Below, piece by piece: positions 3,711-4,159 of a stretch of DNA of 64,000 nucleotides. The number at the start of each line of letters is the position of its first letter. Position 1 is the first letter of the stretch. The notes under the pieces are model-generated. The model had not been told where the DNA came from, searched no databases, and saw only the letters and a list, made by a program, of their open reading frames with translations. Source of the DNA: Escherichia coli (GTDB lineage: Bacteria; Pseudomonadota; Gammaproteobacteria; Enterobacterales; Enterobacteriaceae). Location of the stretch: the NCBI RefSeq assembly GCF_017348835.2, contig NZ_CP071375.1. One strand, given 5' to 3'. The position numbers and the translations under genes were made by a program.

Positions 3711-4159
3711 ATGTTCTCACCGCAGTCACGCTTGCGTCATGCAGTTGCAGATACGTTCGCGATGGTTGTTTACTGTTCTGTCGTGAACATGTGTATTGAA
3801 GTTTTCCTCTCCGGAATGAGCTTCGAACAGTCTTTTTATTCCAGATTGGTAGCGATTCCGGTGAACATCTTAATTGCATGGCCATACGGTATGTACCGCG
3901 ATCTGTTTATGCGGCGGCACGCAAAGTTAGCCCGTCGGGCTGGATAAAAAATCTGGCGGATATCCTGGCTTATGTGACGTTCCAGTCACCGGTGTATGTG
4001 GCGATCTTGTTAGTGGTGGGCGCAGACTGGCATCAGATTATGGCGGCGGTCAGTTCAAACATCGTTGTTTCGATGTTGATGGGGGCGGTTTATGGCTACT
4101 TCCTCGATTATTGCCGCCGACTGTTTAAAGTCAGCCGTTACCAGCAGGTAAAAGCCTGA
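3711..4159 (+). pseudogene. alaE: L-alanine exporter AlaE (YgaW), apparently interrupted by a 1-nt frameshift
   Basis: ORF 3711..3947 carries the AlaE N-terminus and ORF 3878..4159 the AlaE C-terminus in another frame; the combined span is 449 nt, one short of 150 codons. Confidence 0.6.

Follow-up and report, generated by a model that had tools for sequence, protein, structure and literature searches.

The window considered here, a stretch of 64,000 nucleotides (nt) of the Escherichia coli contig NZ_CP071375.1 (assembly GCF_017348835.2), carries the gene of the L-alanine exporter AlaE (YgaW) in a form divided between two reading frames. This alaE pseudogene occupies positions 3711-4159 of the plus strand, and the former 450-nt gene now measures 449 nt, one short of 150 codons, as had been counted in an earlier annotation made from the letters alone (the sequence-only reading). 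In the list of open reading frames (ORFs), the frame that begins at the native start (frame 0; 3711-3947, plus strand) encodes a product of 78 amino acids (aa), whose first 68 residues are identical to wild-type AlaE (WP_000492656.1) and are followed by an aberrant tail of 10 residues and a premature TAA at 3945-3947, precisely where the sequence-only reading had located the stop. In the -1 frame, an ORF that overlaps the first (3878-4159) ends in ...RYQQVKA with the native TGA at 4157-4159; its stretch from 3914 to 4159 on the plus strand, which the native start does not feed, corresponds to AlaE residues 69-149, again identical to WP_000492656.1. When both frames are joined, the amino acids of all 149 codons are identical to this reference, and the claim that the N- and C-terminal halves of AlaE lie in different frames is borne out. 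The two-frame split is that of a known gene cleanly divided, and not a statistical pattern.

Both halves show significant matches to the Pfam profile of the AlaE family (PF06610), the first frame at model positions 2-72 of 141 (E 3.5e-31) and the second at positions 67-140 of 141 (E 9.5e-32). The family assignment of the fragments rests on Pfam, as an NCBIfam scan of both gave no match to an AlaE model and only a spurious sub-threshold match to YabQ. The genomic position is also the orthologous one: the upstream neighbour stpA (2639-3043, minus strand) and the downstream neighbour ygaC (4196-4540, minus strand) are intact, and they are annotated as flanking genes in the genomes of strain PE164, strain F2_81 and O157, the stpA-alaE-ygaC locus being common to the window and the reference. 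What the window lacks is one continuous ORF of some 149 codons, the 449 nt being spread over two frames with the TAA in between.

Alignment with the intact alleles of O157 and F2_81 placed the loss of a single C between positions 3913 and 3914, after nt 203 of the gene and inside the interval of about 3909-3922 (occupied by atgcggcggcacgc) where the frame switch had been anticipated. At the lesion the wild type reads ATGCGCGCGGCACGC and the window ATGCG-GCGGCACGC; in codons, TTT ATG CGC GCG GCA CGC is replaced by TTT ATG CG- GCG GCA CGC, the deleted base being the third of the wild-type codon Arg68 (CGC). In this way the intact tract ATGCGCGCGG of codons 67-70 becomes ATGCG-GCGG (the deleted form reads ATGCGGCGG), and the remnant of its (GC)3 repeat, TGCGGCGG, is found at 3910-3917 on the plus strand. 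Relative to intact E. coli AlaE, the correct frame is lost beyond residue 68, and the ORF closes at 78 aa. The shortfall of 1 nt stands, whereas the GC-rich run in which the sequence-only reading had considered a 1-nt error has to be refined to an alternating (GC)3 tract that is neither a generic GC-rich run nor a homopolymer. Since slippage on such a repeat would remove two bases, simple repeat slippage does not explain the loss of a single C.

Over its first 25 kb, the window shows 100% identity to NZ_CP114128.1, the record of E. coli PE164, a pig isolate from Nanjing. This strain has been described as an O108:H9 hybrid of atypical enteropathogenic and extraintestinal pathogenic E. coli (aEPEC/ExPEC) from a piglet with bloody diarrhoea, with Illumina NovaSeq data and a Unicycler assembly (PMC12233904); alaE and pseudogenes are not mentioned in that paper. 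In the RefSeq annotation of NZ_CP114128.1 by the Prokaryotic Genome Annotation Pipeline (PGAP), alaE is a pseudogene labelled 'frameshifted' (record positions 1106362-1106738, window 3783-4159), and it is the sole gene with this label among the 75 annotated features across the 64 kb. The frameshift is in consequence already flagged in the public annotation of the PE164 record, and it is an ordinary strain-specific gene loss.

A 551-nt query around alaE matched 5420 of 5426 complete E. coli genomes, and among the matches listed all but NZ_CP114128.1 span 552 nt, one base more than the query. A shorter query of 41 nt across the deletion junction found it in PE164 and in none of the other 5425. 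The allele is rare, because one complete genome in 5426 carries the junction and a scan of the JGI metagenome collection yielded no exact match to it. In the nearest complete relative, F2_81 (pig, Australia), alaE is intact and encodes WP_000492656.1. Over the 64 kb, window and F2_81 are separated by 7 isolated single-nucleotide polymorphisms (SNPs), the alaE indel and a variant cluster in repeated tRNA-Arg spacers, the alaE deletion being the only isolated indel. The deletion arose after the split from F2_81 and is recent and lineage-restricted. A second lineage-private mutation was considered upstream of alaE, at position 3481 (C in the window versus A in F2_81), and was discarded, the C allele being widespread (at least 1467 genomes).

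The sequence-only reading had left two alternatives, an inactivated alaE and a 1-nt assembly error. An error of assembly or base calling, with alaE intact in the strain itself, would agree with the presence of the deletion in just one complete genome, and complete genomes built on long reads suffer from single-base indels more than from any other error; on the other hand, the assembly of PE164 used Illumina data (PMC12233904), and the same deletion occurs in other public assemblies. In this regard, a look-up in NCBI and Logan assemblies for exact copies of the truncated 78-aa protein showed 18 contigs to encode it. Three of the four examined, from an NCBI draft (GCA_032490275.1, a 99.6-kb contig; L006) and from Logan assemblies of the SRA runs SRR17729764 (L007) and SRR33453118 (L008), show 100% identity to the window along 1.9-6.2 kb, deletion included, with some uncertainty as to the provenance of individual runs. 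Moreover, the marks of an artefact, a homopolymer or many other indels, do not appear in the window, where the site is alternating GC, one gene is 'frameshifted' and no other isolated indel separates the sequence from F2_81. Because a comparison over 64 kb reveals one isolated indel, the PE164 assembly is not indel-prone. The matching contigs and this absence of further isolated indels led to the rejection of an assembly error, which we regard as very unlikely; the look-up itself indicates that searching independent assemblies for an exact truncated product can tell real frameshifts from assembly errors. A search of the literature, by accession number, for the assemblies that carry the deletion returned irrelevant matches only.

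Altogether, the matching assemblies, the intact gene in close relatives, the single indel in 64 kb, the non-homopolymeric site and the 'frameshifted' annotation support the first of the two alternatives, and we hold it as highly probable that the missing C is a genuine one-base deletion that makes alaE a pseudogene, AlaE being most likely non-functional. An extra C or G restoring a 450-nt ORF, the observation that would have spoken for an intact gene, is at odds with the public assemblies, within the limits of what these can show. Some considerations weigh against the reading of a genuine null allele: its genuineness was judged from public assemblies and not from the strain's own read pile-up, one or more of the SRA runs that match may hold reads of PE164 itself instead of an independent isolate, the JGI metagenome scan provided no further copy of the junction, the loss of function of AlaE is a prediction, and a split or leaky product keeps a small probability.

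The fourth contig examined (L009, SRR30937708; window equivalent 3497-5076) also speaks for a real mutation, as it shows the same C deletion on a different haplotype, which departs from the window at 15 of 1580 positions. Private SNPs flank the deletion on both sides (3506 and 3965), and the best match among the 5426 complete genomes reaches only 99.1%. About 10 of the SNPs in this contig, mostly in ygaC, are missing from four other aligned intact E. coli haplotypes. Its allele could have arisen independently, have been brought in by a short stretch of recombination, or belong to an Escherichia lineage not sampled so far.

A genuine deletion might still be compatible with an active exporter if translation could pass over the break. 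The stretch from the deletion to the premature TAA contains only one -1 slippery motif, the tetramer A_AA.G at 3923-3926 (plus strand), which is read in frame 0 as GCA AAG (3921-3926) and could allow a background-level leak. Slippage by -1 at this point would bypass the frameshift and give a near-native, partly functional AlaE with RRHAK in place of RAARK. Of all tetramers, A_AA.G is indeed the one that shifts most readily in E. coli, but in the same study tetramers devoid of a stimulator supported about 0.15% frameshifting versus a background of 0.11% (PMC4066793). As in programmed -1 sites such as those of dnaX and the IS3/IS911 elements, alaE of the window has two overlapping frames for one protein and an A_AA.G tetramer; unlike them, it has no X_XXZ_ZZN heptamer, its downstream RNA does not fold better than shuffled sequences (z = -0.83), which leaves a bare tetramer with no stimulatory structure, and the two-frame arrangement is not conserved among homologues, a single ORF being found in essentially all other complete E. 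coli genomes. Programmed frameshifting was rejected for want of heptamer, structure and conservation, and a rescue by slippage at this tetramer appears extremely improbable.

Another way to keep an active exporter would be to make both halves separately, the C-terminal one from an internal start, and to reassemble them. The coding information for residues 1-149 is all kept, unmutated, across the two frames, and an ATG is available at 3878 in the -1 frame; nevertheless, no Shine-Dalgarno-like sequence can be read ahead of 3878 or of other internal starts, and a rare and recent allele fits a null better than a selected architecture. We know of no precedent for a split AlaE, and consider this arrangement scarcely credible.

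Returning to a simple null allele, its expected consequences can be traced on the protein. AlaE has four transmembrane (TM) regions (PMC10299036), and in the hydropathy profile residues 63-84, including the break at 68/69, form a central hydrophilic loop. Given these four regions and a break in the central loop, the 78-aa product is predicted to retain only the first two of the four helices. According to this scheme, a single C deleted from the tract at codons 67-70 would have created a recent alaE pseudogene in PE164 and a small surrounding clone; translation from the native start would run through residues 1-68, comprising the first two TM segments, add ten out-of-frame residues and finish at 3945-3947, and the half of AlaE with TM3 and TM4 would not be made. 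Because those segments would be missing, the exporter of the PE164 clone is most likely non-functional.

In MG1655, an alaE null lowers the minimal inhibitory concentration of L-alanyl-L-alanine to 0.04 mg/mL, versus >1.25 mg/mL in the wild type, and the same study proposes that AlaE works as a safety valve where peptides abound, as they do in the gut (PMC6801825). By analogy, the PE164 clone is predicted to be hypersensitive to L-alanyl-L-alanine or alanine-rich peptides. As inferred from sequence, a pig-pathogenic E. coli clone would naturally lack AlaE, an exporter otherwise near-invariant across the species, and PE164 could act as a natural alaE null for probing the proposed 'safety-valve' role in the gut. 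Beyond the annotation of the strain, the loss of alaE matters little.

Other natural frameshift alleles of alaE resemble that of PE164 in being sporadic loss-of-function indels, and differ from it in lesion and lineage. The (GC)3 tract that is hit in PE164 (alaE nt 201-206) has lost two bases (GC) in two mutually different haplotypes, from ERR10499063 (L021) and from the JGI dataset 3300029511 (L022), which leads to a 72-aa product ending in ...FMRGTQS. In the first of these contigs a T6-to-T5 frameshift also splits stpA, and its assembly quality is uncertain. Farther downstream, an A6-to-A5 change at nt 232-237 within GGATAAAAAATC was found on 16 contigs of at least two haplotypes (L023-L026), and a single T is deleted at nt 286 within GTGTATGTGG on one contig (L027). 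No +1 or +2 alleles of the tract, nor a -1 allele on the GCA background described below, were on record in look-ups of their predicted products. As lesions are found in the GC tract, at nt 232-237 and at nt 286, loss-of-function indels in alaE are sporadic at several sites.

These alleles bear on the possibility that the (GC)3 tract at codons 67-70 is a recurrent frameshift site, with a -1 change on two haplotypes and a -2 change on two others, and that some host-associated lineages, the aEPEC/ExPEC pig clone among them, might repeatedly have been selected for, or at least have tolerated, the loss of this alanine 'safety valve'. Such recurrent loss would be unexpected in view of the protection proposed for AlaE in the peptide-rich gut. 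Recurrence in the GC tract is suggested by these alleles and not established, and the broader proposal, selection or tolerance included, seems to us very unlikely.

A truncation hotspot at residue 68 was also considered, as a 68-aa 'partial' AlaE appears in 315 blocks of the collection, and it was discarded as an assembly artefact. In 7 of the 8 loci examined with this partial product the contig simply ends at ATGCGCGC. The base that follows is a common synonymous GCG/GCA polymorphism of codon 69 (window position ~3916, wild-type nt 207), with GCA in 894 of 5426 complete genomes; because this polymorphism breaks de Bruijn assemblies of mixed samples, Logan contigs obtained from them terminate there. 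The eighth locus (L010, SRR22969638) is an IS10 insertion: at 3201-3232 of the contig, the IS10 end CTGATGAATCCCCTAATGATTTTTATCAA interrupts alaE directly behind ATGCG, the few bases struck being those of the PE164 deletion. This insertion may come from a laboratory strain carrying Tn10 or IS10.

Elsewhere in the window, an array of one tRNA-Ser and four tRNA-Arg genes extends from 22338 to 23065, and the repeated tRNA-Arg spacers hold the only clustered differences with F2_81, consisting of 9 substitutions and a 2-nt indel at 22484 and 22838-22878. These variants look like the result of gene conversion between spacer copies or of a mis-assembled repeat. Finally, the region between hycI and ascB (46949-48593, minus strand) encodes a pair formed by a HigB-family toxin and a helix-turn-helix antitoxin, together with a hypothetical protein of 251 aa (WP_001360181.1); the toxin-antitoxin pair and the hypothetical protein are also present in F2_81.
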